DNA of 64,000 bases, taken from Squalus acanthias. Lineage: Eukaryota. The notes beneath the pieces were generated by a model. The model ran no database searches. It was not told the DNA's origin and worked only from the letters and a program-made list of their open reading frames with translations. The position numbers and the translations under genes are program-made. Below are positions 8,310-45,100 of the stretch, in pieces. The stretch covers positions 99,946,001 to 100,010,000 of the forward strand of contig CM059432.1 in NCBI GenBank assembly GCA_030390025.1, given 5' to 3'. The number at the start of each line of letters is the position of its first letter. Position 1 is the stretch's first letter.

Positions 8310-9690
8310 AAAAAGGTCTCATTTATTTCCAACACCAGATCTGTGATTGGTCACCTTGAAGGCAACACCTGATTTCTGATTGGCCCCTTAGAGGACAAGA
8401 CACACCCAGCAGTTTATCTGGAATGTGTAATTAGATCCTGCCTGCCTAAGTAATCAAGTACTTTGCAAAGTGTAATTCAAGCCATTCTGACTGCCTTGCT
8501 TGAGACAGAACAGAACTCACATACAACAGACAGGGGCTCATCCTTGTGGGTTAAGACTTTCTCCCGCCACCCCCAAACAAGTTCCTGCCCCCCCAACAAG
8601 TTCCTAACCTTCCTCCCACCCCTGAGTTTCTGACCTTTTCCCTCCCAACAAGTTCCCGACCTTCTCCCCTGCCCAAGTTCCTGACCTCCCCACCTTCAAG
8701 TTCCTGACCTTCTTCCCCCGCTCAACTTCCTGATCTCCTCCCCCAGCCTGAGTTCCTGACCTCTCCCCCACCCAAGTTCCTGACCTTCTCCCCCTGCCCA
8801 AGTTCCTCCCCCGTAGGTTCCTGACCTTCTCCCCATGCCCAAGTTCCTCCCCCCAGGTTCCTGACCTTCTCCCCCTGCCCAAGTTTCTCCCCCCCAAGGT
8901 TCATGACCTTCTCCCCTGCCCAAGTTCCTCCCCCCCAGGTTCCTGACCTTCTCCCCCTGCCCAAGTTCCTCCCCCGCAGGTTCCTGACCTTCTCCCCCTG
9001 CCCAAGTTTCTCCCCGACCCCCACCCACCCCCAGGTTCAGGACCTTCTCCCGTCAACAATTTCCTGACATTATCCCCCCCACCCTCCATAGATGGGGCAT
9101 CGTTTGTGGGTCATGGATTGTTAACAGGTTTATTGTGTATGAAGTGAATAGTGACAGTGTCATGCCTTCTGGATTCCGTCCAGACCAATGATGTCACCTA
9201 CCACACATGCACCGAGCTTTACGAGAAATCAACCAGGTCTAGGGGGAGGAGAGGGAGAACGTGGAGCGAGTGTAAAGGGGGTGGCATTGGAAGAACGTGA
9301 TCTGTCTTCCCATCTGGATCATGTTCTCTCTCTCACCCTTCTCTCTCCCCCATTCGGATCCCCTCTCTCTCTCTCTCCCCTTGTCCCCTTCTTTTTTCCC
9401 GATCCCCCCCTCTCTCTCTCTCCCCCTTCCGATTCCCTCTCTCTCTCTCTCTCCTCCGATTCCCTCTCTCTCCCCCCTTTCGATCTTCTCTCTCCCCTTT
9501 CGATCCTCTCTCTCCCCCCCCCACCCGGACCACCCCGGCCACCAACGGATCCCCTGACCTTCCCCTTAAGGAGCCAAGGAAAGCATGGCTCACGGTGCAG
9601 GTCGCAACGGTTGGGTAATGCGCATGCACGGCTCCGGGATACCGCACACATGCGCAGAAAGCCGCAAAAATGTTCGTGTAGATAATCACA
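8310..9690 (+). mobile_element. Unclassified dispersed repeat (copy 1) with internal minisatellite and CT-rich tract
   Basis: Unique blocks ~8310-8560 and ~9090-9330 match 44140-44690 in reverse complement. Confidence 0.7.
8560..9085. repeat. Minisatellite, unit ~20/39 bp (AAGTTCCTCCCCC / AGGTTCCTGACCTTCTCCCCCTGCCC)
   Basis: Tandem degenerate units visible directly. Confidence 0.9.
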
Positions 9691-24290: not shown

Positions 24291-25649
24291 ATTGAGTTTC
24301 CTGCCTGAACCTGGCCAGAATCACTGTCCTGGCTAGCGGACGGGAGAGGGATTTCGAACAGCAGGAGGTCACCACCGGATACCTGAGGGAACGATCCCCG
24401 GCACTGAGGTAGGTCGTTGGGGTGGTGGTGTCATTTAAAAAATTACACATTGCTGGGCCTCTTCTAGCACTGGATCCTTCTGACAGCAGCTTTCCCTGGC
24501 GTTGTCAGCACTGTGCAAGACTCATGCGGTCTGGAGTTCAAGTTGTGTCAGGGTCCAAATTCCATAGAATTACATTGAATATACAGCACAGAAAAAGGCC
24601 ATTCGGCCCAACTAGTCTGTGCTGGTGTTCATACTCCACACAAATCTCCACCCATTCTATCTACCTCATGTCACCAAGGGGGAGAAATTCAGTATCGCCC
24701 CGTTTGGGGTACAATTATCAGCCGGGCGCAAAGTTTAGTGCCTGGCGATAATTATCGCCTCCGACTGCAAACTTGGCTTTTATCACCCCTGGAGGTGATT
24801 GGAGCGCTAAATCAGGCGCTGCACACCTGTCTTAAGGCGCAAAGGCCGAGGAGCGAGACGCTACCTCAGAGTGCGGGCGAAGCTCAGGTGATGTAACTCA
24901 GCAATGGAACACAGACACACTGGCACCAGTTCTTAAAGGGGAGGGTCGATCTTGCTCTCCAGCCACACCCTGCTCATTGCAGGCTTGATACTCGTCGTGG
25001 AGAGACCTGTGCCTGAAATCTTCAGCCAAGGACTATGGAGAGGGTGAGAGAACGAGCTCAGCGCTTCATCGAGCGGGCCTTGGAGGTTATGGTTGGCGCG
25101 GTGGAGCGCCGAAAAGCTATACTGTATCCTCAGAGTGGCAGGAGGCCATTGCCGCGCGACTACAGAAGAGTGTGGAGGGAGGTGGCTCAGCACGCCTCCT
25201 CCAGGAGCATGGTGCCCAGGACCCATACGCAATGTCGCAAAAAGTTCAACGACCTCACTCGGGTCGTCAGGGTGAGTGGCTGTTTTTCAATACCTCTCCA
25301 TCCCTCCATCTCAACCTCACTCTATGGCCAGAGAGTCTTAAAACCCCAATTCCCAGCACTCATCCAAGACCTATGGCCATCTCATAAAACACACACGCAC
25401 ATTCCACACCTTGCATACATTAAGGGCTTTTCAACTATGGGAGGCACATCAGGCAAGACCATGACTGTATATTTACTCAGACGCCGTCCTTTTTCTTGCA
25501 GGCCAAGCTATCTCACAACAGTAGACAGCAGCAACGGACGGGTGGAGGGTGGCCTCAGCTGCAACCCCTCAGCGATCTTGAGGCGCGCGTCCACAGGATT
25601 GTGGCAAGCCCTGTGATCGGTCCCGTCACCCCTGGAGAGGCCGACCCCG

Positions 25650-27249
25650 TGTAGAATTCGCAATTATCGCGATTTCATTTTAATAAGGAGAAAACACAAA
25701 GTTTCGTTCAAAACAGCTTTTATTTCAGCGGAATGCTGTCAGGTTTAAATTGGACACAAGCAGCCTGTAAAATGGCCGCCGCACCGCGTGACAGAACATT
25801 CTAGACTTTTCAGCAGGCAGACAAGATGGCGTTCCAATAAACATTTTTGCAAGATCGATAACGATTCAGCACAGTGAAGACAATACACAGGACATTATGG
25901 GTTTACAGTATAAACATCGATACTGGAATCGGTCTCCCAGGTACAAAGGAAAGCCATCAAGGGCCCATCCAAAGGACATTAATATGTAAACTCCCAACGG
26001 CTCTACGATGAGAGAGCCGTTAGCAGGTAGTTATACAGGACACTTGGAAGCCCCAAACCCCTCCAGGGGGAACACCGACCGATTTAACAATGGGAGAAAT
26101 ATTAACAGGTACTCAAACATTCAGGAGTAGCCCCGAAACCCATTAAGGACAGAGATCACCCATACAGGACATTTTGGGCGCCAAACCTTAAACAAAAGAA
26201 TGGACATTGTAGTTGGGCGGGAAACGGAAGAACTGTGCACTATAATTGCAGGCCCCAAACCGTCCATTCTCTCTCTGGCCTCTTGCTCTTGCTCTTGCCT
26301 CGTGTTCTTGACTCTTGCCGCTTGTTGCTGTTATCATCGTGGCTGCTCCTGTGTAAAAGACTGTTGCAAAGACCTATGTTGGTAGCTGGCAGCGGAACCG
26401 AAGGCCCGGGATGAGATGAGATGAGATGAGATGAGAGGAGAAGAGAAGAAGACCTTATCCATCGCCACGGTCAGTAGATCCCGACCGCGCCTGTAGGTCG
26501 ATCAGCCAAGTCTTCTCGACAGGAAGTTTTCTTCTTTAACAAGACATATTGCATCAATGATAACTGGACTGTGTAAACACATCGTATCAGTGATATTGAC
26601 AACGGTGCTCCACGATTAAACTTTGAAGCCCACCAACAGAGGTCTTCACCACAGCGGACGGTCCAGCCGACTAGCCGAGCAGCAGAAGCAGTAAACAAGT
26701 GGGACCAGGAGATCTCCTGACCAACACGTGGGTGCTGCGGTGAAAAACATCCGATCAGCTATTCGGGATTTCTCCGAGTTATTACGAGTGGTGAGCATGA
26801 GTCTCGAGATCCTACGAAGCTAGTTTTAGGATAGATATTGATAGGGGAGGGTTTAAAGATTAAGGATATTTGTAATGTGTGCCCTATTTACGTTGTGCTG
26901 GTCGTTCCTCGTTTCCCTAAGAGTGATTATAACCGTTTGTAAGATTGTACTGTCATTAATCTGTGCATATGACATGTATTTCATAATTTTAAGTATCATG
27001 CAATAAAGATTTTCCATTTCGTACCGTTCAAACCAAGTCTACATGAGTTTTATCTCCATTACTGCTCTCGCATCTAAGTCCAGTGTCTAGAACCGTAAGG
27101 GAGAGTGATTCGAACCACTCACAGGGGTGTCTAGTGTTCCCAGACTGGCTGGAGACCAGGCCTAGACCCGCACTGACATACAGGCTGCACAGAGCCGCGT
27201 GAATCTCACAGGCTACGAGACACGCAGGGTCAGGAGAGAATCCCTTACA
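25650..27249 (+). repeat. 5' LTR (1600 bp, TGTAG...CTTACA)
   Basis: Direct repeat of 36628-38227 at constant offset 10978; no differences seen by eye. Confidence 0.97.
26215..26270 (+). promoter_or_regulatory. Candidate LTR core promoter: GC box, TATA-like element and Inr
   Basis: GGGCGG 26215-26220, TATAAT 26241-26246, CCATTCT (YYANWYY) with A at 26266. Confidence 0.55.
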
Positions 27250-27253
27250 GAAA

Positions 27254-29065
27254 ATGGCGACCGCGGCAGGACACTGGCAGCGAGAGGGTAGTGTGTTAGA
27301 TTTTGGAATGACTGTACGAACTGTGATGCAGGAAAAGATAGCGGATTACGTATTTGGAAAGGTTAATCTAACGAAAAAGTGGATAAGCGAATTGTTAGCG
27401 GATAAGAGCCCACTAGAGGCAGCTGAAAGGTGGACGGATAGTAAGGAGCATAAAAAGGCAGTTGAGAAAGCAGTCTGGCTTATGTGCTACAAAAGGCAGG
27501 TTCAGATTTCAAACCAGACCAATACAGCGCTAACCGCTCGAATCAAGCATCTAGAGGAGGAAATGGAGGAGAAGGTTTCTGGAGGGGAGGCGCTCATTAA
27601 GAGTTTAAATGAGTTACGCCAGGAAAGCCAGGAAGTCTCCAGTTACCTTAAAACAAGGGTAGAGTATCTCGAGTGCCAGATCACTGAAGCAAAATTAAAC
27701 GAGAGTAGGATGAAGGAAAGATGTAACCGTCAAGCTGCCCAGATAAGAACTCAAGAAGAGAGCTTAATGGGGGTTAGGTCGGCGTATAAGTTGGCCCTTG
27801 AGGATAAGTTTCAGGGAGCCGACCATAGCGCCTGCGAAAAAGAGATAGAGAGTCTCAAAAAGGCCGTGAACAATGCGAACGGCATGGTGTGCCTTATTAA
27901 TCCGTCGGCACGCCAGCCGCTAGTAAATGAGAGATTTAGAAATTCCCCACCAAGTAAAGCAGAAGAAGTAGTAGCCAGTGCGCCCTCCGCGCCACCCAGC
28001 TATTCAGAAACCTGGGTTAGGGAGGAAGCAACGGAAGAAGCAAAAGAGCCCGTTGAAAAAGAGGTAGAAAAGGGATCGTTGTATCCAGTAACGGGGATTA
28101 AAAGGGGCCCAAGCAGAAACGGTGGGGAAGAACCGGGGGATCTCCTCGGACAGCTGGTGTTGCCTCACAGTTCACATCAGCTGAGGGCCATGATAAACCA
28201 CGTAAGGAAGCTGACCGAGATAGACGACCCTTCCGTACATTTCAGGGAAGTTGAGCAAGCCGCAGCCATCAACGGCTGCGATGATGGGGAGACAGCAAAA
28301 ATGCTGCTGTTCTCATTAGATAGCTCGGTCCTTCAGTGTCTCTCAGGCGATAGCAAGAGGGGTAATAAAAGTTATGAGGAATTGAAAAATGAGGTCCTAG
28401 AAGTAGTGGGAGCGAACGACGGAGGTCCGTTTGCTAGAGTGGGACAGACAGTGCAGATGGAGGGAGAACCCCCGAAGGTTTTTGCCGACAGGCTGTGGCC
28501 AGTATATGAGCGCAGCTGTCTAGGTGCGCCCGAGCGCGAAGATGTGGAAGGCGCCGCTTTAATTCATTGGCTTAGGTGCATAATAGCCAACAGTTTACCA
28601 GCCGTTAGAGAGCAGGCAAAAGCCTGGTTCGATCCCAATGACCTCAACCTTACGGAAGAGTCGGTCTTGAATCGACTCACGTTAGGTTATCGTAATATAA
28701 GGGGTATGACGACACGTCCCTTTAAGGGAAGAGTACATGAGGTACGACCCGCAGCCCCGGCTCAAAAGGAGTGGCATCAGGAGGGTAATCGCGCCCCACA
28801 GGCAAGTCATGCCTGTTACGGGTGTGGGAAGACAGGGCACTGGCGCAAGCACTGCAGGAACCCTTGGAAGGATTCCAAGGATAAAAATCCCGCGGTCCGA
28901 ACCCAGGCGCCTGTCCCGGCTAAGGAAGCAAAGGCACCCACCTCTCCCGAAGACCTCGAAGCAGTGTTAGGAGTCATGCGCAAGATGGTTTTGAATGCGC
29001 GTGGACAGGTGGCGGTCGCAACCGGCCCCGTAGGTGCCGCAGGACCGTCTAATAGTGCCCCATGA
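27254..29065 (+). CDS. gag: Gag polyprotein (603 aa)
   Basis: Intact ORF after PBS; N-terminal coiled coil, PSAPPSY late domain, capsid-like helical region, CCHC knuckle CYGCGKTGHWRKHC. Confidence 0.92.
   Translation: MATAAGHWQREGSVLDFGMTVRTVMQEKIADYVFGKVNLTKKWISELLADKSPLEAAERWTDSKEHKKAVEKAVWLMCYKRQVQISNQTNTALTARIKHLEEEMEEKVSGGEALIKSLNELRQESQEVSSYLKTRVEYLECQITEAKLNESRMKERCNRQAAQIRTQEESLMGVRSAYKLALEDKFQGADHSACEKEIESLKKAVNNANGMVCLINPSARQPLVNERFRNSPPSKAEEVVASAPSAPPSYSETWVREEATEEAKEPVEKEVEKGSLYPVTGIKRGPSRNGGEEPGDLLGQLVLPHSSHQLRAMINHVRKLTEIDDPSVHFREVEQAAAINGCDDGETAKMLLFSLDSSVLQCLSGDSKRGNKSYEELKNEVLEVVGANDGGPFARVGQTVQMEGEPPKVFADRLWPVYERSCLGAPEREDVEGAALIHWLRCIIANSLPAVREQAKAWFDPNDLNLTEESVLNRLTLGYRNIRGMTTRPFKGRVHEVRPAAPAQKEWHQEGNRAPQASHACYGCGKTGHWRKHCRNPWKDSKDKNPAVRTQAPVPAKEAKAPTSPEDLEAVLGVMRKMVLNARGQVAVATGPVGAAGPSNSAP
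27255..27272 (+). promoter_or_regulatory. Primer-binding site, tRNA-Arg(UCG)
   Basis: TGGCGACCGCGGCAGGAC, 5 nt after the LTR end, complementary to the vertebrate tRNA-Arg(UCG) 3' end as I recall it (...GUCCUGCCGCGGUCGCCA). Confidence 0.85.
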
Positions 29066-31618
29066 CTAGAACCAGCACAGCCCGTCTACCTGTGTCCGCT
29101 CAGCTATGATGCGTGGAGGCGACCTGTGGTGGAGATGGAGGTAGAGAAACAAAAGGGCAGTTATTTGTTGGACACGGGAGCTTCTTGCACCATAATCCAT
29201 ACAGATGACCCTTTTGACTCGCCGCTATCTACCAAGGTCCCATTCACGCTAGCAGGGTTCACAGGGAAAGAACAGGCTGGCACGTTTTCCCTCCCGCTAT
29301 CCATTCGTTTAGGGACACTTCGCCTTAAGTGGAAGTGTATACTGATGGCATGGCAAAAGGGGGGTGGAAGAGGTATTCTCGGGTCCGATCTGCTAGCGGG
29401 ACACGGGATCCTCGTGGACCTCAGAAATCACTGTCTCTGGGGGGCTAAAGGTGAAAAAGGCGAGGTAATGGTAATTCAAGGGGAGGAAGAAACAGGGGTC
29501 CTGTGTACCGTACAGCCATCCGGAGGCTACGACCTCAGGCTTATGGTCGCAGATGTCCCAACGGACATGCAAACGTACGTGACAGATAATATGCACGCGT
29601 TTGCAACCCACAAGCACGATTGTGGGAGGGTGGTCGGGTTTGAGGTCAGCGTAGATGGGGACCCCATGACCCGACCCCAAAAGCAGTATAACTTCCCCAA
29701 AGAAGCAGAACCCGATATGGAGGCAGCAATGTCTTCCTTGGTGCAGCAGGGCGTGTTGAGGCCGATAGCCACACACGTGAACTCCCCATTATGGCCGGTT
29801 AGGAAGCCGGATAATTCGTGGAGAGCCACGGTGGACTACAGAGTCCTTAACAGTAACATCCCCGCCTGCGCGCCCACAGTAGCAGCAGTTGCTGACCTAA
29901 TAGGGAGCATCCCAGCGTCCGCGACCACGTTCACGGTGCTGGATATCTCGAACGGTTTTTGGTCCATCCCGCTGCGGCGAGAGGACCAGTACAAGTTTGC
30001 CTTTACGTTTAAAGGGCAACAGTACACGTGGAACTGCTTGCCACAGGGTTTCCACAATAGCCCCAGTATTTTTCACCAGTGTATGGCAGGAAGTTTAAAG
30101 GAGTTTAGTCAGCCCAATCAGATAGTACAGTATGTGGATGATTTGCTCCTATTTACGGACTCAAGGGAGGAGCACGGACCACTACTGGACGAGTTATTGG
30201 AGCTGTTAGCGAGAAAGGGTTTTAAAGTAAACCCAAAGAAAGCACGTATCGGTCAGCAGGAAGTAAAATTCCTGGGACTGACCCTACGCGCTGGGGAAAG
30301 AGCCATAGACAAAGCAAGGAGGGAGTCGGTGCAAGAATTACCGATTCCCAACAACGTAAGGGGTGTGAGGTCCTTCTTGGGACTGACCGGTTACTGCAGG
30401 GATTTTATCGAGGATTATGCGGCCACAGCGGCGCCGCTCCTCCGACTCCTCCATAAGGGAGTAGAGTGGCTTTGGGACGAGGGCTGCCAAGCAGCCTTCG
30501 AGAAGTTAAAAAGGGATCTGCAGACCGCGCCAGCCTTAGGGGCCATAGATGGGGGGAAGGAGTTTTTCCTGGAGGTAGCTGCCAGCGGAGACAGCTTAAG
30601 CGCCGTGCTGCTCCAAGAGCGTCACGGCAAGCTGAGGCCGGTTGTCTATTCATCCAGGGTATTAACGGATGTGGAGAGAAGTTTTTCCAATTGCGAAAGG
30701 CACCTTTTAGCCACGCATTGGGCTGTGAAAAGATCAGCGATCTTCACAGGGCTCTCTCCCATCACTCTCCTCACACATCACACACCAACTAAGATGCTTC
30801 TGGATGGGAGGATTAAAGACGGGACCGTAAGCAGCGCACGCATTGCGCGTTGGACCCTTCTTCTCTCCCAGTTGGACATCAGAGTAAAAGGTCTTTGCGA
30901 GCCCAGGCTTGCGGCCAATTTGGTATACCCCGGTACAGCCCACCGGTGTTCGGTGGAGGGGGTGTGGGACGTCAACATAGGTTTACGGGCCGGGATACAT
31001 CCCACTGGGCGCGAGATTTATGTTGATGGGTCTAGCACAGTATCTGCTGGCGAGCGACTCACAGGGTGTGGAGTTTATGACCCTGCGGCAGACCTTGCCC
31101 TGGCGATCAAGCTCCCTAGCACCATGAGCGCGCAGCAGGCTGAGCTGTCTGCCGTGGTGTACGTGGTAACCCACCCAGACATTTTCCCAACCCCATACAC
31201 GATTTGCTCGGACAGTATGTTCACCTGCAATTCGTGTACGGAATACCTGGCCATTTGGTCCCGCCGTGGATACACCTCCGCGGACGGGCGACCTTTAACG
31301 GTAAAGCCCTTGCTGGAAAAGATCTTAGCAGCAGCAGTAGGGGAGGAAGGGGAGATTTTCATCCATAAGGTGAAAGCTCACTCCTCCACAGAGCCCCGTG
31401 GGGAGGGCAACCGGCAGGCGGATGCGCTAGCCAGGGAGGGTGCCCGCGACGGTACTTTCTGGAACCCCTATAGAACCGGACCCATAGCAGCGGTCCGAGG
31501 TGGGGACGGGAATACCGGGAACACCAGGGTAGCATTGCCCCTAGACCTTAAGACCGTCCAAGCCCAGGATCCCGCCCTAAAAGCAGTCCTAAAAACGATT
31601 GCTGAGGGGGGCAGGTAG
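29066..31618 (+). CDS. pol: Pol part 1: protease, RT, tether (degenerate RNase H), RNase H; in frame with gag behind one UGA
   Basis: LLDTGAS; LDISNGFW, LPQGF, YVDD (30131); tether FFLEVAAS...SAVLLQ...YSSR; RNase H IYVDGS...SAQQAEL...SDS...VKAH...GNRQADALA. Confidence 0.95.
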   Translation, partial: LEPAQPVYLCPLSYDAWRRPVVEMEVEKQKGSYLLDTGASCTIIHTDDPFDSPLSTKVPFTLAGFTGKEQAGTFSLPLSIRLGTLRLKWKCILMAWQKGGGRGILGSDLLAGHGILVDLRNHCLWGAKGEKGEVMVIQGEEETGVLCTVQPSGGYDLRLMVADVPTDMQTYVTDNMHAFATHKHDCGRVVGFEVSVDGDPMTRPQKQYNFPKEAEPDMEAAMSSLVQQGVLRPIATHVNSPLWPVRKPDNSWRATVDYRVLNSNIPACAPTVAAVADLIGSIPASATTFTVLDISNGFWSIPLRREDQYKFAFTFKGQQYTWNCLPQGFHNSPSIFHQCMAGSLKEFSQPNQIVQYVDDLLLFTDSREEHGPLLDELLELLARKGFKVNPKKARIGQQEVKFLGLTLRAGERAIDKARRESVQELPIPNNVRGVRSFLGLTGYCRDFIEDYAATAAPLLRLLHKGVEWLWDEGCQAAFEKLKRDLQTAPALGAIDGGKEFFLEVAASGDSLSAVLLQERHGKLRPVVYSSRVLTDVERSFSNCERHLLATHWAVKRSAIFTGLSPITLLTHHTPTKMLLDGRIKDGTVSSARIARWTLLLSQLDIRVKGLCEPRLAANLVYPGTAHRCSVEGVWDVNIGLRAGIHPTGREIYVDGSSTVSAGERLTGCGVYDPAADLALAIKLPSTMSAQQAELSAVVYVVTHPDIFPTPYTICSDSMFTCNSCTEYLAIWSRRGYTSADGRPLTVKPLLEKILAAAVGEEGEIFIHKVKAHSSTEPRGEGNRQADALAREGARDGTFWNPYRTGPIAAVRGGDGNTGNTRVALPLDLKTVQAQDPALKAVLKTIAEGGR

Positions 31619-33567
31619 AAGGTCCGTACAGTACGGCAACCCTCTCAGTTAAGGAAGGCATGCTGTTCCGCGAGGAGCAGTGGGTTGTGCCGCAGCAGCA
31701 CAGGAGGGAATTCCTCCAGTTGGCTCACGAGGGACCAGGGGCAGGGCACCCCGGGCCCGAGGTTACCTGGCAACGGGTAGAGCAAGCGGGATGGTGGCCA
31801 GGGCTCAGGGAACAAGTCCGCGAGTTCTGTGCAAACTGTCTTGTGTGCGCTGCAAACAACCCAGACCCCCAGAAAAGGAAGGTGCCCATGGGACACGTAA
31901 GAAGGGTAGAGGGACCATGGCAGTCGATACAGATCGACTATATAGGACCCCTGCCCACCACCCAGGGAGGTTATAAGTACTGCCTCGTCCTGGTGGATGT
32001 GTTTTCCAAGTGGGTGGAAGCCTTCCCTTGTCGAACAGCTACGGCACTGGGTACAGCAAAAATCTTGGTCCGGGAAGTGTTCTCGCGGTGGGGACTCCCC
32101 CGTTTCGTGGAGTCAGACCAAGGGAGTCATTTCACCGGCCAGGTGATGCAGAACACCCTCATGCTTTTGGGCATTGAAGGGAAGTGGCACGTAGCACACA
32201 ATCCCCAGTCATCCGGGATTGTTGAACGTATGAACCGGACCCTGAAGGAGAAATTGAGGAAAGAGACTAGGAACTCGCCCCAAAAATGGGCGGAAGTTCT
32301 GCCTTTAGTCCTCATGGGGGTCCGGGCCAGTCAGTCAAAAAGTACGGGGTACTCCCCGCACGAGGTAATGACCGGCAGGCTCATGCGAACCCCCACCCAT
32401 GTGCTAGCCCCGGTGCTCACTGAGGGTCAGCTCCAGGAGATAAGCAGGGACAAGTTCGCCCAGACTCTCTTGGAGCGCCTGAAGCAAGTTTATGAGCAGG
32501 CGGCTGGGAACATGGGAAGGCAGCACCAGGGCAATCGCTTGTTGCTGGAACCCCGCAAAACGCGGGAGTGGGAAGTAGGAGACCAGGTCATGGTCAGAAA
32601 CTACGCCAGAGTAGGGAGTCTGGAACCACTGTATATGGGACCCTACAACATTGTAGACAAGGCAAGTCCCATGGTTTACGCCGTAAAAGTACCTCGGCGC
32701 ACTAAGTGGTTCCACATAAACCAATGTAAACTGTACCAGCCGGGTGCGCAAGGGAAAACTACAGGGGTAAATCCCGCCAATGGGAAAACACAGCCCCAGG
32801 TAGGACCACAAGGCACACAGGCAGGCGTAGCAGCTTGCATCAGGGGAAGGGACATCCCGGACGATCATGCAGCGTTTTTCTGGAGTTGGGGGTTAGATGA
32901 CGAGGACCCCAGGGTACCCTGGTCAGATGAGGATAGTGCAGATGAGCATAGTGATGATGACGGGTGGTTCCTGAGGAACGGTCTGGGAGGATTGGGGCCG
33001 ATAGGTAGAGATCCATACGGGGTGGACACACAAGCTGCAGGTCCCGACAGCAGGAGGAAGGAGCTAGAGGAGGCCGGGCCAGCCGCTATGTGGTTCCCAG
33101 AGGTGTGGCCGCCCGCTTTGAACGTCCAGTCCTCAGGGGAGGCAGAGTTCGCGAGTGAAGGGCCGCCTGCTGGGCCGAGCAGGGCGGGGCCCCGAACTGC
33201 CAGCCCCGAGGTTAGGGAGGCGGAGTCAGCGGAGGCGGGGCTGGCGCCTGTGATGGAACCCCAGGTCATCCCGTTGAAGGTCTCGGGACCCGGTCCGTCC
33301 GTCACGGAGCCCCCGCCCATAGCAATTCCCCGTAGGTCAAGCAGAGTACCCCAGCCCAGGAAGATGTGGTCAGGTCCACAGGCTGCCCCAGGGCGTAAGT
33401 TTCAGGTTAAGATAACCCGGGTAGAGACAGGCCACATCGAAGCAGTAACAGGCTGCGGCAGATCAGAGGAAAGGGTCAGCGCAGCAACAGGCTGCGGCAG
33501 ATCAGAGGGAAGGGTCAGTGCCCTCCCACCGTCGGGAAGAGCTCGCAGCAGCCTTCTCAGGATTTAA
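31612..33567 (+). CDS. pol: Pol part 2: integrase (HHCC, DD35E, GPY/F) with long C-terminal extension; -1 frame relative to part 1
   Basis: AHEG...GHPG...CLVC; IDYIGP, SDQGSHF, GIVERMNRTLK; YMGPY; open reading continues upstream to the G6 run at 31606-31611. Confidence 0.93.
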   Translation, partial: QVEGPYSTATLSVKEGMLFREEQWVVPQQHRREFLQLAHEGPGAGHPGPEVTWQRVEQAGWWPGLREQVREFCANCLVCAANNPDPQKRKVPMGHVRRVEGPWQSIQIDYIGPLPTTQGGYKYCLVLVDVFSKWVEAFPCRTATALGTAKILVREVFSRWGLPRFVESDQGSHFTGQVMQNTLMLLGIEGKWHVAHNPQSSGIVERMNRTLKEKLRKETRNSPQKWAEVLPLVLMGVRASQSKSTGYSPHEVMTGRLMRTPTHVLAPVLTEGQLQEISRDKFAQTLLERLKQVYEQAAGNMGRQHQGNRLLLEPRKTREWEVGDQVMVRNYARVGSLEPLYMGPYNIVDKASPMVYAVKVPRRTKWFHINQCKLYQPGAQGKTTGVNPANGKTQPQVGPQGTQAGVAACIRGRDIPDDHAAFFWSWGLDDEDPRVPWSDEDSADEHSDDDGWFLRNGLGGLGPIGRDPYGVDTQAAGPDSRRKELEEAGPAAMWFPEVWPPALNVQSSGEAEFASEGPPAGPSRAGPRTASPEVREAESAEAGLAPVMEPQVIPLKVSGPGPSVTEPPPIAIPRRSSRVPQPRKMWSGPQAAPGRKFQVKITRVETGHIEAVTGCGRSEERVSAATGCGRSEGRVSALPPSGRARSSLLRI

Positions 33568-33818
33568 AGGGGCCGCCCTGAGAACGGGCGGCATTGTAAA
33601 GTTATTAGTTTAAGGTTTTAAGTTTTAGTTTAAAGTTTTAAGTAGTTTTAATAAGGTTAAGTTTGTAGTGTTTTTAACAGAAAACGATAAAATGATGGGA
33701 GTTTTAAGGCTAGGTTTAGAGGAAGTCTATTCAGCAAACGTTGAAGTTTACGTGAGGCGAGGTCAGGGGACCCGCTCACCCTTCACAAAAGCCAGAGACT
33801 TTTTGCGAGGCTGGCTAC

Positions 33819-33838
33819 CTCATTCTATCTGATCACAG
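33819..33838 (+). promoter_or_regulatory. Candidate env splice acceptor
   Basis: CTCATTCTATCTGATCACAG| ending 13 nt before the env ATG (AGGATGG). Confidence 0.6.
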
Positions 33839-33851
33839 GAACCAAGGAAGG

Positions 33852-36203
33852 ATGGAACGACTTCTAGTTTTGCTCGTGGCAATCGGATGTGGATTGGCCT
33901 ATCGGGGCCTCACCAAGGATGTCATGGTGTTTGGATGTTCCGGGGACACGGCCCCCATCGCGGTGGATGGGACCGGAAGACGGAAGGCAGAAGGGACCAG
34001 CACCTATTTCCACAAGGGAAGGTGGCCAGGATGGCTGGGAACGAACTCAACGGAGTATTCCAGCACATCGGGGTTCGCCTATAAAGAGACTTCTTTAATG
34101 TGCCCCAAAGTACGGATCATCGCACCCAGGATCAGCGTCACCGTCGGCAAACGGATTTGTTTGACCTGCAGTGGGAATGTCCCATTGAGCCGATGGTGGT
34201 GGCTGCGAAAGCTGAGCAAAACTATGAGGAACTCTTCGGTTGAGTGGGAGCGACTGGGTAATAATACCCATCGGACAATTACGGGGACAGATGGACAAGT
34301 GAAAGTCTGTTGGGACAAATGGTGGGAACCGGATGAGGGGATTTATGTTTGTATGTGGGGGTCAAAGTACGTTTGCCCCAAAGGCATCTCCATATTCTTT
34401 ATTAACCAGTGGCAGGATAACGGACAGGGGATGAGGTGGGATGCGAGCACCAGGGGGTGCGGAGCCCCATACTCTCCGATCCCAGTAAATGCCACTGAGC
34501 TCATTACGCGCCCACGCAAAGCCCCGCCCACGATTCCGGTAGTTCTAACTGAGGAAGAAGGGTGCCCTAAAACTAGTAAGGGACCCGGGAACGGTTTGGT
34601 ACTGGTCCCCACAGACCAGATACTATTTCAGGGAGTGCATTACGCGGTGGCCTCGGTGATTTTAAATCTCACTGAGGTACGGTTACCAGAGTGGTGCCCC
34701 AAAAAGACGGAACAGTTGTACCAGGTCCTGTTGACCAAGATGTTCAGGCAATTTTACGAGTTTGATTTTGCAGAAATTGATAAGACAAGTTTATACACCG
34801 CACCGCAGGAAGTTTTGGACCAAGTAGGGAGGCAAAGAAGGGGTTTGGTGAACGATGCGTTCACTGCTTTTAACACAGGGACATCTGTGGTCAACGCTCT
34901 AGACAGTGTGGAGCTGCAGACCCAGATTAATGGTTTAAAAACACAGTTAAAGGATATTCTTACAGATGAGAATAAAGTGGTAGGGTCGGGTCTGCACGAG
35001 GACCAAGCCATGACACTCCACTTAAAGGAAATCATAGCAGAGCTGGAGAAACATGCGCGTACGGTAAATGCCCTGATTAGGGAAGATCGGAATGCATCCG
35101 ATCAAGCTGCGCAGAACGAGGTGTGCGTGCTTTACGGGGCGTGGTTACTGGGCGAGGGCCGCAGTAATTTGGAGGATTTAAAACAAGGTTTGGTTCCGTC
35201 CTGGATAAGTAACAAACACCTGCGGGCGCTCCACCCTTTTCAGAACGCATTAAGTCCGTGCCAGCTCAGGCTAGCTTCAGAAGCTTACCCAGTCCCCGTG
35301 GACTGCGGACGTTCAAACCATACTATTATGGGAATAGTATTACGCATGCCGGTTTTGGGCAACACAGCAAAGCCCGCCCCGGTGTATCGGGTAGAGAACG
35401 TTGGTGTCATTCAGGGGGGAGCCCACATTCGTTATGCAGCGGTTCCACCTTACGTCATCCGCTGGGAGCAAACGATGACAGGTACAGATCTCTCTGGTTG
35501 TCGTGGCAGGGGAGCACACATAATACTGTGCCCCCAGCACTTGAATGCCTTTTTAACACCACAGTGCGGGTTCAGAACGGCTGGCGCCAAGTCCATGAAT
35601 TGCACCATGGAGGCAATGGCACAAGATCATGTGCCTCCGCAGGTAGCATACATCGGGGGTGGAACATATTGTGTTACCACTGCAGCGCAACACTACCAGC
35701 ATGGAAACCGTAGCCGGTGTCCGGTGAGTGACAGCAGTTTCTGTTTTAAACCCAGGGCTGAAGTTCAAGTAGCACAACAGCGAATTATCCCAATCCCTGA
35801 ACCATCCACTGTTCATCTCACAGTAAAAGAGAATTTTACCGACTTGCAGCGATTTGTCGCACATTTTGGGTACCTCATTCCCCCTCTCCCTGAGCATTTA
35901 ACCAAACTTCTGAAAGCCGTCGCGGTTTCACAGAAGCATTTTTATACGTTAGAGCAGAAAACTGTCGAGATAGGTACAGACATTTTGGACATAGTGGTTC
36001 CACCGTGGTGGAATCTGTTCACGAATATTGAAGTGCCCTCATGGGTCAGAATAGCCTCCCACATTTTAGTCGTCTGTCAAGTGTTTATTGTAGTATACCT
36101 TTTGTTCATACATTGTAAAAGAGACAAGCGCCTCACCAAGCATGAGAACACGGGAGAGTGGCGAGAACGTTACGTGCGCGTGCACGATGAGAGCGCAGTG
36201 TAA
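33852..36203 (+). CDS. env: Envelope glycoprotein (783 aa): signal peptide, Ig-like domain, F-type fusion protein, TM anchor
   Basis: MERLLVLLVAIGCGLA signal; C106/W116/DEGIYVC167 Ig motif; furin site RQRR (34830-34841) followed by hydrophobic GLVNDAFTAF and heptad repeat; Cys-rich region; TM ILVVCQVFIVVYLLFI; 28-aa tail with YVRV. Confidence 0.93.
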   Translation: MERLLVLLVAIGCGLAYRGLTKDVMVFGCSGDTAPIAVDGTGRRKAEGTSTYFHKGRWPGWLGTNSTEYSSTSGFAYKETSLMCPKVRIIAPRISVTVGKRICLTCSGNVPLSRWWWLRKLSKTMRNSSVEWERLGNNTHRTITGTDGQVKVCWDKWWEPDEGIYVCMWGSKYVCPKGISIFFINQWQDNGQGMRWDASTRGCGAPYSPIPVNATELITRPRKAPPTIPVVLTEEEGCPKTSKGPGNGLVLVPTDQILFQGVHYAVASVILNLTEVRLPEWCPKKTEQLYQVLLTKMFRQFYEFDFAEIDKTSLYTAPQEVLDQVGRQRRGLVNDAFTAFNTGTSVVNALDSVELQTQINGLKTQLKDILTDENKVVGSGLHEDQAMTLHLKEIIAELEKHARTVNALIREDRNASDQAAQNEVCVLYGAWLLGEGRSNLEDLKQGLVPSWISNKHLRALHPFQNALSPCQLRLASEAYPVPVDCGRSNHTIMGIVLRMPVLGNTAKPAPVYRVENVGVIQGGAHIRYAAVPPYVIRWEQTMTGTDLSGCRGRGAHIILCPQHLNAFLTPQCGFRTAGAKSMNCTMEAMAQDHVPPQVAYIGGGTYCVTTAAQHYQHGNRSRCPVSDSSFCFKPRAEVQVAQQRIIPIPEPSTVHLTVKENFTDLQRFVAHFGYLIPPLPEHLTKLLKAVAVSQKHFYTLEQKTVEIGTDILDIVVPPWWNLFTNIEVPSWVRIASHILVVCQVFIVVYLLFIHCKRDKRLTKHENTGEWRERYVRVHDESAV

Positions 36204-36615
36204 TGGGAAAATGGCGTCACTCCCGCTCGCCACGTGCGCCGCGGAAGTTTGTACTCATTGTAAATACGTTGGAAACTCGACATGTTTAAGAGTCGGGATT
36301 TGTTTATTTTGGTGATGGTGTTGATTGTTTGGTTTTTGGGTTTTGTTTTTCCTTCCCTTGAATAAAAGACAAATATACAGGTGATGCGTGAGGTATCGGC
36401 CTGGTTACGCCGGGAAGGAAAACAAATGGTGTAAGTTTAAGGGCAAATGATGCCTACGGTGATATAAAATGTGATTTTTCTTGGGAAATGAGGACGACAC
36501 AGAGACCCTAGTGAAGTTAAAATTTATGGGATTAATTTACTGGATTCGGAGTGAAATCGAGATAAGATTGCTCACCACTGAGATTTTTGATACGATAAGC
36601 GGAGTTATTCGCATC

Positions 36616-36626
36616 AACAGGAGGGA
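36616..36626 (+). other. Polypurine tract
   Basis: AACAGGAGGGA, one base before the 3' LTR TG. Confidence 0.75.
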
Positions 36627-36627
36627 C

Positions 36628-38227
36628 TGTAGAATTCGCAATTATCGCGATTTCATTTTAATAAGGAGAAAACACAAAGTTTCGTTCAAAACAGCTTTTA
36701 TTTCAGCGGAATGCTGTCAGGTTTAAATTGGACACAAGCAGCCTGTAAAATGGCCGCCGCACCGCGTGACAGAACATTCTAGACTTTTCAGCAGGCAGAC
36801 AAGATGGCGTTCCAATAAACATTTTTGCAAGATCGATAACGATTCAGCACAGTGAAGACAATACACAGGACATTATGGGTTTACAGTATAAACATCGATA
36901 CTGGAATCGGTCTCCCAGGTACAAAGGAAAGCCATCAAGGGCCCATCCAAAGGACATTAATATGTAAACTCCCAACGGCTCTACGATGAGAGAGCCGTTA
37001 GCAGGTAGTTATACAGGACACTTGGAAGCCCCAAACCCCTCCAGGGGGAACACCGACCGATTTAACAATGGGAGAAATATTAACAGGTACTCAAACATTC
37101 AGGAGTAGCCCCGAAACCCATTAAGGACAGAGATCACCCATACAGGACATTTTGGGCGCCAAACCTTAAACAAAAGAATGGACATTGTAGTTGGGCGGGA
37201 AACGGAAGAACTGTGCACTATAATTGCAGGCCCCAAACCGTCCATTCTCTCTCTGGCCTCTTGCTCTTGCTCTTGCCTCGTGTTCTTGACTCTTGCCGCT
37301 TGTTGCTGTTATCATCGTGGCTGCTCCTGTGTAAAAGACTGTTGCAAAGACCTATGTTGGTAGCTGGCAGCGGAACCGAAGGCCCGGGATGAGATGAGAT
37401 GAGATGAGATGAGAGGAGAAGAGAAGAAGACCTTATCCATCGCCACGGTCAGTAGATCCCGACCGCGCCTGTAGGTCGATCAGCCAAGTCTTCTCGACAG
37501 GAAGTTTTCTTCTTTAACAAGACATATTGCATCAATGATAACTGGACTGTGTAAACACATCGTATCAGTGATATTGACAACGGTGCTCCACGATTAAACT
37601 TTGAAGCCCACCAACAGAGGTCTTCACCACAGCGGACGGTCCAGCCGACTAGCCGAGCAGCAGAAGCAGTAAACAAGTGGGACCAGGAGATCTCCTGACC
37701 AACACGTGGGTGCTGCGGTGAAAAACATCCGATCAGCTATTCGGGATTTCTCCGAGTTATTACGAGTGGTGAGCATGAGTCTCGAGATCCTACGAAGCTA
37801 GTTTTAGGATAGATATTGATAGGGGAGGGTTTAAAGATTAAGGATATTTGTAATGTGTGCCCTATTTACGTTGTGCTGGTCGTTCCTCGTTTCCCTAAGA
37901 GTGATTATAACCGTTTGTAAGATTGTACTGTCATTAATCTGTGCATATGACATGTATTTCATAATTTTAAGTATCATGCAATAAAGATTTTCCATTTCGT
38001 ACCGTTCAAACCAAGTCTACATGAGTTTTATCTCCATTACTGCTCTCGCATCTAAGTCCAGTGTCTAGAACCGTAAGGGAGAGTGATTCGAACCACTCAC
38101 AGGGGTGTCTAGTGTTCCCAGACTGGCTGGAGACCAGGCCTAGACCCGCACTGACATACAGGCTGCACAGAGCCGCGTGAATCTCACAGGCTACGAGACA
38201 CGCAGGGTCAGGAGAGAATCCCTTACA
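36628..38227 (+). repeat. 3' LTR (1600 bp), with candidate poly(A) signal AATAAA at 37980-37985
   Basis: Direct repeat of 5' LTR; ends CTTACA followed by TSD CCCG. Confidence 0.97.
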
Positions 38228-39694
38228 CCCGTTCGGGACAGCAATGGTAAGGTCATCAGCTTTCTCTCCTCTCTCATTCCACTTGTCCCTCACAACACTA
38301 GCCTTTGACACTTTCAATCCATCTTATTAAATCGCACCACTCCTTCCTCCCTTACTGCCCCCCTGTCCTCACGCTAAAGTCACTCTTGTACCTCCCTGCT
38401 TTCAGTTGGTCATTCACCAACTGAGGAGACGGGCCCTCAAGCTGCCAGTGGGATCGAAGCCACAGGCGAGGAGGAAGAGGAAGCTGGAGCATCAGCGCCA
38501 CCCTCTCCCGAGGAAGCCCATGCCCACACTGGGAACACGTCTTCCCTGGAGGGGAGCAGGGGGGAAGAGTCTGATGAGGGTGAAGCTCCGGGACCCAGCA
38601 GGCTGCAGCAACATGATGGGGGTAGGGAAGTTTCGGGGCCTTCTCCCCGGACGGAGAGTAGGCCAGCGAGTCCTGCTGCACTGGACACAGAGGAGGAGCG
38701 GCTCATCGCTAAAATGAACACCCAGGCGGTGGACATGCACACTCAGCTCATGGGTGCAGTGGGAAGGGTGCCCGAAAGCATTGATGCACTGGCAAGGAGT
38801 GTGGAGCACTTCGCTGTAGCACAGGCGGATGCCACGCAAATGCTTAGTGCTGCAATTCAGTCACTGACTGCCGTGATCTAATCTCAGACTGGTCTCATGC
38901 AGACTCAGATTGAGGCCACACAAGCACTGACTGCTGCCATCGTCGCTGGTTTGGCCACATTGCCCCGGGGCTCTCACCGCGCCGCAGCAGGCCAGCAATC
39001 TGTGCTTCAGCAGATTGCTCCGGATGCTGAGGTGCTGCCCCGTGGGAGTGCCAGTGTGTCAGTCGAGCAGGGAGTTGCTGTCGTCTCTCAAGATGACAGC
39101 ATTCCTGCTGCCACCACTGTCACTTCCCCATTGCACTTGCCACCGCCTGTAGCCCAGACTGCTGCCGCCCATGCAGAGTTGGTGCAGTCTGCAGCCGGGC
39201 CCTCCAGGCCCAGAGCTGGTCGAGGGCGTCCTTCAAGGGCATCTGTAGTCTCAGGATCTGACATTCAGCAGCCTTCCACCAGCCTAGCTGCAGCCACTGG
39301 GGCCCCATTATGGAGGAGCAGTAGGGTGGGAAGGGGGCAAGTGGGCAAGGGAAGGAGATCACCCTCGAAGGGCAAAAAGTAGGAGGTCTCAGGAAATGTT
39401 GGGAATGTTTTTATTAAAGGCCGAGGTTCATGTGATAACTTTTGTTTAGTGTTTTGGCCATTATCTCCAGGTTGTGAGAACCAGTTATGTTAATGAATGA
39501 TTTTTTGTGTTTGTTTCTATTAGTTTGTCATGAATAAATGACACACACAGAGTTTGTAAAATAAAAAAGTTGTTGTATTCAAAATGTACATGTTTGGCCT
39601 TTGGAATCATTGCTGCCTTGGCCGGCTATAGGGGTTGCGGGTTGCTTTCCATCATGTTGTTCTCCATGCCAGAAGCCATTTCCTGAGAAGGGAC

Positions 39695-40805
39695 CTAGAA
39701 GCTGCTTGTTATCAGTCGTTGACGGACGGCCCTTGCAGTTTCAACATTGTGGGCCTCCCTCCCGCCTTGGTGCTGCTGCTGATCATCCTCCTCCTCGTCC
39801 TCCTCCTCTTCCTCCTCCTCCTCCTCCGGTGGTGCACCAAGAATTGGTGGCATTGGCTGGGTCCTGAGGATTGCCAGGTTATGAAGAATGCAGCAAACAA
39901 CTATGAAGAGGGAGACTCGCTCAGGCAAGTACTGCAGGGCTCCTCCTGAGTGGTCCAGACAGCGGAACCATTGCTTGAGCACACTGATCGTCTGCTCAAT
40001 GATGTTCCTGGTGGCGAGATGGCTCTCATTGTACCGCAGCTCAGCAGGAGTGTTGGGGTTACGGAGCAGTGTCATCAGCCAGGTGCAGAGTGGATTACCC
40101 TTGTCCCTGAGGAGCCAACCATTTGGCTGATGTGGTGCCTGGAAAAGTTCTGGCACACCAGTCTGGCGCAGGATGAAAGCATCGTGGCTGCTGCCAGGAT
40201 AGCGGGCATTGACAGCGAGTATCAGCTGTCTGTGGTCACACAGACCAACTGGACGTTTAAGGAGTGGAACCCCTTGCGGTTTCGGAAAACCTCCGCATTC
40301 TCATGTGGTGCCTGCAATGCCACATGCGTGCAGTCAATGGCGCCCTGCACCATGGGGAAGCCCGCTATCCTCGCAAAGCCCAATGCGCGTTCATGTTGTT
40401 TGGCCCGGGTCATCGGGACAGAGATGTACTGGCGTCTCCTTTTATAGAGGGTATTTGTGACCTCCCAGATAAAGCAATGGACTGCGAACTGGGAGATATT
40501 GGCGATGTCCCCAGTAGCTGCTTGAAAGGAGCTGGTGGCATAAAAATTCAGAGCCACTGTGACCTTCACTGCCACCGACAGAGACGTCCTGGTCCTCAGT
40601 TGAGGCTACAGATCTGGCTGCAGCAGGTGGCAGAGCTCAGTGACCACCTCCTTGCTGAAGCGCAGCCTGCGCAAACACTGCTCCTCAGACAAATGAATAT
40701 AGGAGAATTGTTCCCTCTGGCCATGTTTGCCACTCTCTCTCTGCGTCTCTGATGCCTCCGATTCTGCAGGCGCAGGATGACGCCCTGAATCAGTGCAGCC
40801 CCCAT
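39695..40805 (-). pseudogene. Harbinger DDE transposase (HARBI1-like), frameshifted
   Basis: Fragments [82 protein letters not shown]. Confidence 0.9.
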
Positions 40806-42160: not shown

Positions 42161-45100
42161 GGCTGGGAAATTGGACCTGTTTGCGCCGACCGTTAAGGCC
42201 AGTCTCGCTTCCGTCCATTTTGGGCAGGTCGGCAACACTGCCGTTGCCTGCGTTCACTCCAGACATTCAGATGAGCCAGATCGTGACGTCAATTGGCGTA
42301 AAACACTGAATTGATGAACGATCTGGTATTTTGGACGTTGCTGCTCCTATTAACGCACTCTCCAAAGCATGCACGACAGAACGTGAGTGCAGCAGTACAA
42401 CGGATCCTCTACCAGCGCTTCTTAAAGGGACAGACAACTTTCAGGTCAGTTTAGAATTTTGTTTTTTGTACTGGTTACTTTACATTTTATTGGAGTAGTG
42501 GCTTGTTGTAATACATTTAAAACATTGTTAAAGTGCGAAGGGAGTGCAGGGAGTGCTGTTGGATGTTTGCAAGGCTTTGGCTCTTAAAGGAAGGCTTCTG
42601 AGCACATCACTTACTCCTAGTCCTGGGGGTTCAAGTCACAGTCCCCCTTGGGCTGCAGCATGATATGGAGATGGAGCAGAGGCAGCAAAGGGGACAAGCT
42701 GCTTGCAGAGGGAGGAGGAGCAGGAAAGCAGAAGAGGAAAAAGCAGAAGAGGGAAAAGCAGAAGAAGAAGAAGTAGAAGAGGAGGAAGCAGAAGAGGAGG
42801 ACGCAGAAGGAAGGAGGTAATCCAGACAGCCCCTTTCTGGCCAGGATATCCGGGATGGAATCATCCACCTGCGGTACCAGTGAACACAATCCCAATTCCC
42901 CTTTCAACATTTGTCCCACACCTTACCTTCCCTCTGTTACTGACCATCACAGCGTCCTGTTGGCCACAATACTGAAATAAAAGCCACCACAAAGCAAACT
43001 TTCCAATCTAACTTTATCCACATATGCATCCGATATTACATCAAAAAATCAATTAATTCCCTTAGTACTGTCTTGCGTGTGCCTTTGCCTATCCTACTGA
43101 TGTCACGCAGTGCTACCCCAGTGGCTGCAGCATGGCTGGTGGAAGGCTGCTGACTTTCCAGTGGGGGACACTGCAGATGGCCTTGCTGGTTGACCTTGAG
43201 GAGCTGGTGGCTGGGAGTGTGAAATCGCGTGATGGTGTTTCTTCTTCTTCACTCTCCTCTCCCTCTTCTTAGTCAACCACTGGCTGGGCAGGCTGCATTT
43301 CTTGGGTGTGTGAAATAAGGAAGGCACAAGGGTAGGATTGTGGTGAGGGGAGGGGGGTAAAGCAAGAGGTGCATGCTTACACCATGTGCAGCGGAGGGGG
43401 GAGAGAGAGGGGATCGGAGGAGGGAGAGGGAGGGAATCAGAGCGGGGAGAGAGAGGAGGGGGAGAGAGAGGAGATGGAGAGAGAGAGAGAGAGGAGAACG
43501 CAGGGGGGAGAGAGAGGGGAGAGAGTGGGGAGATAGAGGAGAGGGAAGAGAGAGGAGGGGAGAGAGAGGAGGAAGAGAGAGGGATCAGAGGGGGATTGGA
43601 GGGGGAGGGGGATCGGAAGGGGGAGAGAGTGGGGAGATAGAGGAAAGGGGAGAGAGAGGGGAAGAGAGAGGAAGGGAGAGAGAGGAGGAAGAGAGAGGGG
43701 ATCGGAGGGGGGAGGGGGGAGGGGGGATTAGAGGGGGGAGAGAGAGGGGATTGGAGGAGGAGAGAGGGGGAGAGAGAGGAGCGGGGAGAGAGAATGGGGA
43801 GATAGAGGGGGAGAGAGAGGAGGGGGAGAGAGAGCATCGGAGGGGAGAAAGAGAAGGAATTGGAGGGGGGAGAGAGAGGGGATTGGAGGGGAGAGAGAGG
43901 AGGGGGAGAGAAAGAGGGTATCAGAGAGGGGAATTGGAGGAGGGAGAGATAGGGAATTGGTGGGGGAGAGAGAGGGGATCAGAGGTGGGAGAGAAAGGGA
44001 GAGAGAGGAGAGGGAGAGAGGATCGGAAGGGAGGGGAGGTCAGGAACTCTGGGGGAGAGAGAAGGTCAGGACTCGAGGGGGTATGGCAAAGAGCACAGAG
44101 AGCACAGTGGGGATGGGGGAAGAACGTGATTCAGGTCTAAAGGGAGGGGAATGAGAGTGAGGGCATGATCCAGATGGTAAGACGGATCACATTCTTTACA
44201 CACCGCACCACATTCTTCCTCTCCTCCCCCTAGACCTGGTTGATTTCTCGGAAAGCTCGGTGCGTGTATGGCAAGGGACATTCGAAAGTCATGACACTGT
44301 CACTATTCACTTCATACCCAATAACCCTTTTAACAATCCGTGACCCTCACACAATGCCCCATCTATGGGGTGAGGGGTGGGGAGGAAGGTCAGGAACTTG
44401 GGGGGTGGGGCCAGGAACTTGCTTAGGGGGTGGGAGAAGGTCTTAACCCGCAAGGGTGGGTCCTGTCTGTTCCAAATGAGTTTTGTTCTGTCTGGAGTAG
44501 GCAGTCAGAATGGCTCGAATTACACTTTGCAAAGTAATTGATTACATAGGCAGGGAGGATCTAATTACACATTCCAGAGAAACTTCTGGGTGTGTCTTGT
44601 CCTCCAAGGGGACCAATCAGCAATCAGATCTTGTCATCCAATGGGACCAATCAGAACTTTGGTGTTGCAAATACACACGACCTTTTAAATCAGAAGAGAT
44701 TTTGGAATGAGGGGGAAGTGGGATATGAGAAGGAGGATAACATATGAGGATACTGGCATCTTGTATTCTTTCAGCCCCACCGCTGGCCAAGGGCTCAGCC
44801 ATGTCCCGGCCAAGAATGGCCAACACTGTCTCCTCCAAGGGGGTGAGGTGAAGCTAGGAATGTGAAGTGTGCCTCATGTTTGTTGGTACAGATTGTTGGT
44901 AGGTGAGTGATAGGAAGGGGTGGTGGTGCGGGGGCTGTGCATTGAGCAGTGTGTGTGGCTAGTGGTGCAGTTGATAGGAGACGGCTTTTGAAGATGCATT
45001 CATTGACCTTGACCACTCGTCTGAAGTCATGAAGCTTCTTTGGGCACTGGAGCCAGGTTCTGTGGGTGACACTACTGGCAGTGACCGCCTCTGAGATCTG

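Follow-up and report, generated by a model that had tools for sequence, protein, structure and literature searches.

In gammaretroviruses and epsilonretroviruses, readthrough of a stop codon between gag and pol is the rule, and the codon is UAG (PMC13517186; published work is cited throughout for the passages of each source that were covered). A UGA gag stop in frame with pol, presumed to be read through, has been described for SSSV, ZFERV and RMEV, the last a cane-toad endogenous retrovirus (ERV) (PMC13517186), and XtERV-S likewise has a UGA (TGA) gag stop with presumed readthrough (PMC8278194). The specific context UGA-CUA is established in other systems. A 2026 review lists readthrough at this context for alphaviruses and a dicistrovirus and, in the passages covered, for no retrovirus (PMC13517186). 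In the fission-yeast Ty3/gypsy elements Tj1, Tcry1 and Tosmo1-3, gag and pol are separated by a conserved TGA-CT(A/G), for which the authors infer readthrough, and the Tj1 stop is required for transposition (10.1101/2022.12.06.519325). In this report, we describe a provirus-like element of Squalus acanthias that spans positions 25650-38227 of a 64,000-nucleotide stretch of DNA, hereafter the window (assembly GCA_030390025.1, contig CM059432.1, positions 99,946,001 to 100,010,000). The element has the order gag-pol-env, and its gag ends in UGA-CUAG, with pol following in the same frame.

Direct reading of the sequence gives CCA at 29060-29062, TGA at 29063-29065 and CTAG at 29066-29069. The gag frame runs from stop to stop over 27203-29065, and the pol frame, in which Pfam matches identify protease, reverse transcriptase (RT), tether and RNase H, covers 29066-31618 (850 codons). 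The two share one frame, and a single in-frame stop separates them. The codons at 29066-29125, immediately after the gag TGA, translate as LEPAQPVYLCPLSYDAWRRP. An initial sequence-only reading of this DNA had reported the same gag end, the shared frame and 20 sense codons running into the protease; sequence and frames confirm the first two, and the codons that it quoted are correct. Its further statement that UGA-CUAG is a leaky-stop context agrees with reporter assays, in which UGA-CUAG supports readthrough and UGA-CUA alone yields about 1.5% (PMC4132726). Two slippery-type heptamers are present near the junction, at 28718 and 29209, but a frameshift is not needed there, because the gag and pol frames coincide.

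The heptamer at 29063-29069 is a type II readthrough context as this class is defined in PMC4132726 and PMC13517186. The UGA is followed by CUA, one of the two accepted triplets (CUA or CGG), and behind it a long frame continues in phase, in which the protease domain is not preceded by a start codon. The UAG followed by G that characterizes type III (gammaretrovirus) signals is absent. The first Met after the gag stop is codon 24 (ATG at 29135), and the DTG motif containing the catalytic Asp of the protease is at codon 36. The Pfam RVP match begins at codon 17, and the protein of a coelacanth relative aligns from codon 9; a start at codon 24 would therefore truncate the protease domain.

TGACTAG is not rare in itself, with four matches in the window compared with 7.7 expected. 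The position of TGACTAG at the end of gag, and not the heptamer as such, is what carries significance. Among 365 stop triplets in any plus-strand frame of the internal region of the element, TGA followed by CTA occurs once, and that instance is the gag stop. Across the whole window, 3 of 2822 stop triplets are in the context TGACTAG and 14 are in TGACTA, so the chance of finding CTAG behind a random stop is about 0.1%.

We judged conservation of the stop from relatives of the Gag protein and from sequencing runs. Skate, sawshark and catshark, all cartilaginous fishes, supply the named close homologs of Gag and Env, which by themselves point to a shark or ray as the probable host. Three full-ended skate loci, whose Gag is 52% identical to that of the window, and two further relatives at 45% and 36% identity have the same aligned end as the window Gag, 11-14 residues past a common C-terminal motif. 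Even the longest of 31 Gag relatives, found in a search without a length limit, does not exceed 628 amino acids. Judged from these protein ends, the position of the stop is conserved in the relatives. Viral contigs yielded no relative.

Both flanks of the stop are represented in four sequencing runs, which carry four organism labels and come from four studies; coverage includes positions 29057 and 29077, which vary. Among the best-supported 40 of 755 differences from these runs, none falls within 29063-29069. Differences private to the window copy, including a break in pol described below, appear in all four runs. Together, the ends of the related Gag proteins and the absence of listed differences at 29063-29069 disfavor a private nonsense change. 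Some irregularities were seen downstream of the stop. One contig from run X4 (depth 3.45) skips 29095-29255, approximately inside the stem predicted below, and is too weak to count. Runs X12 and X15 share a loose end at 29097, 31 nt past the stop, which suggests a deleted or rearranged subfamily. For X12, which may be an RNA run, no splice-like joint into the junction was listed, in a comparison that excluded the LTR and so carries no weight for or against splicing.

Downstream of the stop, RNA folding predicts an extended, unbranched stem-loop at 29075-29281, beginning 10 nt 3' of the UGA. The 200 nt starting at the stop fold at -82.2 kcal/mol (z -5.3), and none of 200 shuffled sequences was as stable. 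In a partition-function calculation over 320 nt, one unbranched stem of about 205 nt extends from approximately 29075 to 29281, with most pairs having a probability above 0.9. When 62 windows of 200 nt across gag-pol are compared, the one at the gag stop ranks first. The hairpin is a single-sequence prediction, made with folding methods confined to pseudoknot-free structures. Strong folding also occurs elsewhere in pol, at 30166-30766 and 31666-31966 (z -4.3 to -4.7 for 200 nt), and an 80-nt window at 30214 has z -6.2.

In its predicted form, this junction matches the layout of the alphavirus nsP3/nsP4 junction, which is of Beier-Grimm type II (PMC3159437, PMC13517186). Both would have UGA, CUA(G) and a long stem-loop about 10 nt downstream, and in both the polymerase would be made by readthrough, as is proposed for the window element. 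In alphaviruses, a stem 8-9 nt past the UGA raises readthrough 3- to 14-fold (PMC3159437). The alphavirus structure differs in that a stem of 11-12 bp closes a long loop, whereas the window element is predicted to form a nearly continuous rod of about 205 nt. Unlike the alphavirus signal, the putative signal described here lies within a long terminal repeat (LTR) element with gag, pol and env. Moloney murine leukemia virus (MoMLV; type III) resembles the window element in making Gag-Pol through one in-frame stop just ahead of the protease with an RNA structure on the 3' side, but it has UAG-G, a purine-rich spacer and a compact pseudoknot in place of UGA-CUAG and a long hairpin; in type III signals the pseudoknot is of H type and lies 8 nt past the stop. 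The contexts reported for the retroviral UGA stops of SSSV, ZFERV and RMEV are UGAAGA, UGACGA and UGAAGU, compared with UGACUA here. XtERV-S has a class I-type env. Tj1, Tcry1 and the Tosmo elements are fungal retrotransposons of a lineage unrelated to the window element.

The same junction motif is found in lokiretroviruses. We surveyed the first 300 of 318 pages of the supplement of PMC7947760, which give 24 lokiretrovirus consensus sequences. A separate pol gene is present in 14 of these, and 10 carry an annotation of fused gag and pol (15 of 20 header mentions listed). TGA-CTA-(G/A) is located at the gag-pol junction in 7 of the 14 consensuses with separate pol, and also in a metagenome contig, L001. 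All six gag genes whose ends could be located end in TGA, which is followed by CTAG in Ofa, Pyo and Sau and by CTAA in Bsp, Dcl and Lro; the seventh junction, that of Cne, came from a motif search. For Ofa and Lro, agreement of the gag and pol frames was checked by eye. None of the other seven consensuses has a junction that can be read: the sequences of Aro, Ape, Bpe and Lch start at the annotated pol start or shortly before it, that of Tfu shows an X at the corresponding position, and for Lca and Rca no TGACTA occurs in the supplement passages covered. The hairpins of the Ofa, Pyo, Sau and Bsp consensuses appear similar by eye only and were not counted.

A search of metagenome contigs returned 79 loci with identities of 25-34%, of which L001 was the best match. 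In 18 of the 79, the stop with which the protease-RT frame opens could be placed, and L001 is the only one of these 18 with both a long upstream open frame and TGA-CTA. It is lokiretrovirus-like, its env matches PF00523, and its gag frame ends in TGA CTA A, in frame with pol. The junction region of L001 (2177-2245) has a modest hairpin behind the stop, with z -1.9 at 80 nt and 10 of 200 shuffled sequences folding as well. The pol of L001 has an additional in-frame stop ahead of RNase H.

Several published pol starts of lokiretroviruses are annotated at downstream TTG, CTG or ATG codons (PMC7947760). The words readthrough, stop and suppress are absent from the main text of that paper, and readthrough and stop codon are absent from the supplement pages covered; within this material, the TGA-CTA junction is unremarked by its authors. 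Lokiretroviruses and the window element are alike in TGA-CTA-(G/A), in having a tether and RNase H and in a related integrase, and possibly in an F0-like env. They differ in that the window RT groups with retrovirus-like sequences and reads LPQGF where L001 reads CPFGY. No cartilaginous fishes are listed among the hosts in the covered parts of PMC7947760.

We conclude that this junction is best explained by programmed readthrough of the UGA, with help from CUAG and probably from the long hairpin, and we hold this to be very likely. The sequence-only reading had already proposed programmed readthrough; it is the best-supported reading and is now further backed by the conserved stop position and the predicted 3' hairpin. 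The layout, the conserved position of the stop and the lack of an AUG before the protease domain are observed. According to the model, Gag and Gag-Pol would both be translated from one unspliced RNA, and the majority of ribosomes would terminate at the gag UGA. A minority would decode UGA with a near-cognate tRNA, favored by the CUAG behind it and by the long hairpin 10 nt further on. These ribosomes would continue in frame through protease, RT and RNase H, and also through integrase where pol is unbroken, and readthrough would thereby set a high ratio of Gag to Gag-Pol. The hairpin is predicted, and its stimulation of readthrough, like the occurrence and level of readthrough, is presumed from the layout.

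Several observations weigh against this explanation. The CUAG bases were read directly in no close relative, and the comparison with sequencing runs concerns the best 40 of 755 differences; the absence of a listed difference at 29063-29069 speaks against a private nonsense change without giving those bases in another copy. Of the contigs listed, two span the junction, with 3 and 9 differences, mostly at places outside the best 40. The coelacanth gene model P0005, with 40% identity in Pol, is annotated as a fused Gag-Pol, an annotation in which a real frame and a gene-model splice are not distinguished, and for 10 of the 24 lokiretrovirus consensuses the annotation gives gag and pol as one frame. 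Because of these fused annotations, the stop is not universal among relatives. With regard to the hairpin, other 200-nt windows in pol are nearly as strong (z -4.7, -4.4 and -4.3), and window lengths of 80, 120, 150, 160 and 200 nt were tried. The 150 nt downstream of the stop, which the sequence-only reading had proposed to fold, form a different and weaker hairpin (z -2.5), as do 80 nt (z -2.2); the strong result (z -5.3) belongs to the 200-nt window. Finally, the Candida element Tca2 has a similar UGA junction at which no readthrough was found with a reporter (PMC2194720).

It is improbable that Pol comes, in the manner of foamy viruses, from an mRNA spliced at the AG of CTAG or at another AG close by, or that it starts at an AUG of its own. 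CTAG does end in a YAG, and among solved retroviral RT chains the window RT scores nearly as well against those named Pr125Pol and peptidase A9/RT (202-220 bits) as against those named RT/RNase H p80 (238-241 bits), the best two groups, which we take to be of foamy-virus type and murine-leukemia type, respectively. As an acceptor, the AG of CTAG is undistinguished: 8 of the 16 upstream bases are pyrimidines, and 40 of 93 regional YAG sites are as good or better by a crude score. In spumaviruses, pol is in another frame and has a separate start codon (PMC8278194), whereas here gag and pol share a frame and the protease contains the first AUG of pol. Also, alternation between CTAG and CTAAG in lokiretroviruses would shift the phase of the acceptor, yet their gag and pol remain in frame. 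Bypass of the stop by reinitiation, internal initiation or another noncanonical route, as has been argued for Tca2 (PMC2194720), is very improbable, even with that precedent and even though a strong hairpin could alternatively serve initiation or packaging. A start at Met 24 would lose protease residues that are matched by Pfam and by a relative, and bypass leaves unexplained why UGA is followed by CUA in eight lokiretrovirus junctions and in the window element.

The view that the TGA is a private nonsense mutation within a single gag-pol frame draws on the one other lesion in the pol of the window copy and on the relatives annotated as fused Gag-Pol. It is largely refuted, and only a slim chance is left to it: the LTRs are identical, relatives down to 36% identity share the end of Gag, the TGA codon is free of differences among the best-supported 40 of 755 in four runs, and CTAG would follow a random stop with a chance of about 0.1%. 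UGA plus a 3' hairpin also occurs at some selenocysteine codons (PMC3159437), but no selenocysteine insertion sequence (SECIS) family is among the four Rfam matches found up to E 5 in the whole element, and recoding as selenocysteine is almost certainly not the explanation.

To place the element, we built a quick RT tree of 68 sequences with a midpoint root; it includes one lokiretrovirus row (L001) and no named foamy virus row, and matches covering fewer than 170 residues and most unnamed weaker matches were left out. In this tree, the window RT joins 44 retrovirus-like rows with support 99 and is separated from L001 and the Ty3/gypsy rows, and judged from RT sequence the element is not a lokiretrovirus. 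Its closest named neighbors, weakly supported, are gene models from coelacanth, frog and turtle. The integrase is 43% identical to that of L001, and both fall in one unresolved group. A tether and second RNase H domain are present (Pfam RT_RNaseH and RNase_H), a feature common to all retroviruses. Foamy virus Gag lacks a Cys-His box, and such a motif (CCHC) is present in the Gag of the window and its relatives. Also absent is a second foamy feature, a pol frame that differs from that of gag and starts at a codon of its own (PMC8278194). The most fitting description of the element is a basal cartilaginous-fish ERV, which may belong to the shark and frog foamy-like group of CmiFLERV and XtrFLERV (PMC5512871).

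Env (33852-36203, 783 codons) has a signal-peptide-like start, an RQRR site and a C-terminal hydrophobic stretch. For its residues 230-760, the top named match is F0 (0.93, with 207 of 256 language-model features). BLASTP against the L001 env gives an E value of 0.003, and hhalign gives a probability of 2.7. A Pfam search of the window Env gave no PF00523 match, a sequence search of the PDB with Env gave no match, and a single-sequence AlphaFold model (pLDDT 33) was unusable, so that Pfam, hhalign and folding lend the F0 resemblance no confirmation. As a lead only, an F0-like Env may here accompany a retrovirus-type RT. If true, this would be a combination so far tied to lokiretroviruses.

All parts of the provirus are on the plus strand. 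Its 5' LTR (25650-27249) is 1600 bp long, has TG...CA ends and is 100% identical to the 3' LTR (36628-38227), which is preceded by a purine-rich tract; sequence comparison gives a 4-bp target-site duplication, CCCG, at 25646-25649 and 38228-38231. Because the two LTRs are identical, we infer that the provirus inserted very recently. The primer-binding site (27255-27272) begins with TGG 5 nt past the LTR, and we presume that it corresponds to tRNA-Arg; no tRNA is present in the 64-kb window. It overlaps the gag ATG, which lies 4 nt past the LTR on the first primer-binding-site bases (27250-27272), so that the whole leader is inside the LTR. From this first ATG, gag has 603 codons (27254-29065) with one CX2CX4HX4C knuckle and the TGA end. 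Pfam zf-CCHC matches the skate Gag homolog only and not the window Gag. The MAT-like start of Gag is similar in skate and in one further Gag relative.

The sequence-only reading missed a frame break between RNase H and integrase in the window copy; integrase (31606-33567) is in a different frame from the rest of pol. In a relative at 82% identity, pol is a single unbroken frame across this place, and the main contigs of the four sequencing runs lack the break, which is therefore private to the window copy or its assembly. The integrase frame extends about 270 codons (32740-33567) beyond the part common to relatives, with an acidic, proline-rich tail and a short repeat near the end. The 5' LTR has a Myb/SANT frame (25017-25616, plus strand) just to its left and the 3' LTR a DDE_Tnp_4 frame (39695-40300, minus strand) to its right, which suggests that the provirus lies within a PIF/Harbinger-like transposon. 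The window also contains a GA-rich low-complexity array (43400-44040) and a 41-bp tandem array (8726-9056).

In the literature searched, we found no report of UGA-CUA for a vertebrate retrovirus or lokiretrovirus; subscription journals, Repbase, figures and bioRxiv supplements are outside the scope of this statement, and term look-ups were made in the covered parts of PMC7947760, PMC9040795, PMC5512871, PMC12440569 and bioRxiv 2023.10.26.564294. What appears to be new is the full CUAG together with a predicted alphavirus-like stem in a vertebrate retrovirus. UGA gag stops in retroviruses were already known, and the judgment of the sequence-only reading that UGA readthrough is unusual for a retrovirus holds for the CUAG context but not for UGA itself, in view of SSSV, ZFERV, RMEV and XtERV-S.

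The window element supplies a retroviral case of UGA-CUA, in a young multicopy family. As a side result, the annotation of several lokiretroviruses is corrected: the TGA-CTA that closes gag lies in frame with pol, whose published start has been placed downstream. These junctions bear on the way in which the stoichiometry of Gag and Gag-Pol became established at the base of the retrovirus tree. It is conceivable, although rather doubtful, that UGA-CUA with a 3' hairpin is an ancient mode of Gag-Pol expression, shared by descent between lokiretroviruses and basal cartilaginous-fish retroviruses with F0-like env. Convergence is no less plausible than common descent, since so short a signal has separate origins in alphaviruses, mammals and fission yeast. 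If common descent is true, the UAG-pseudoknot signal of gammaretroviruses and the frameshift signals would be later replacements.

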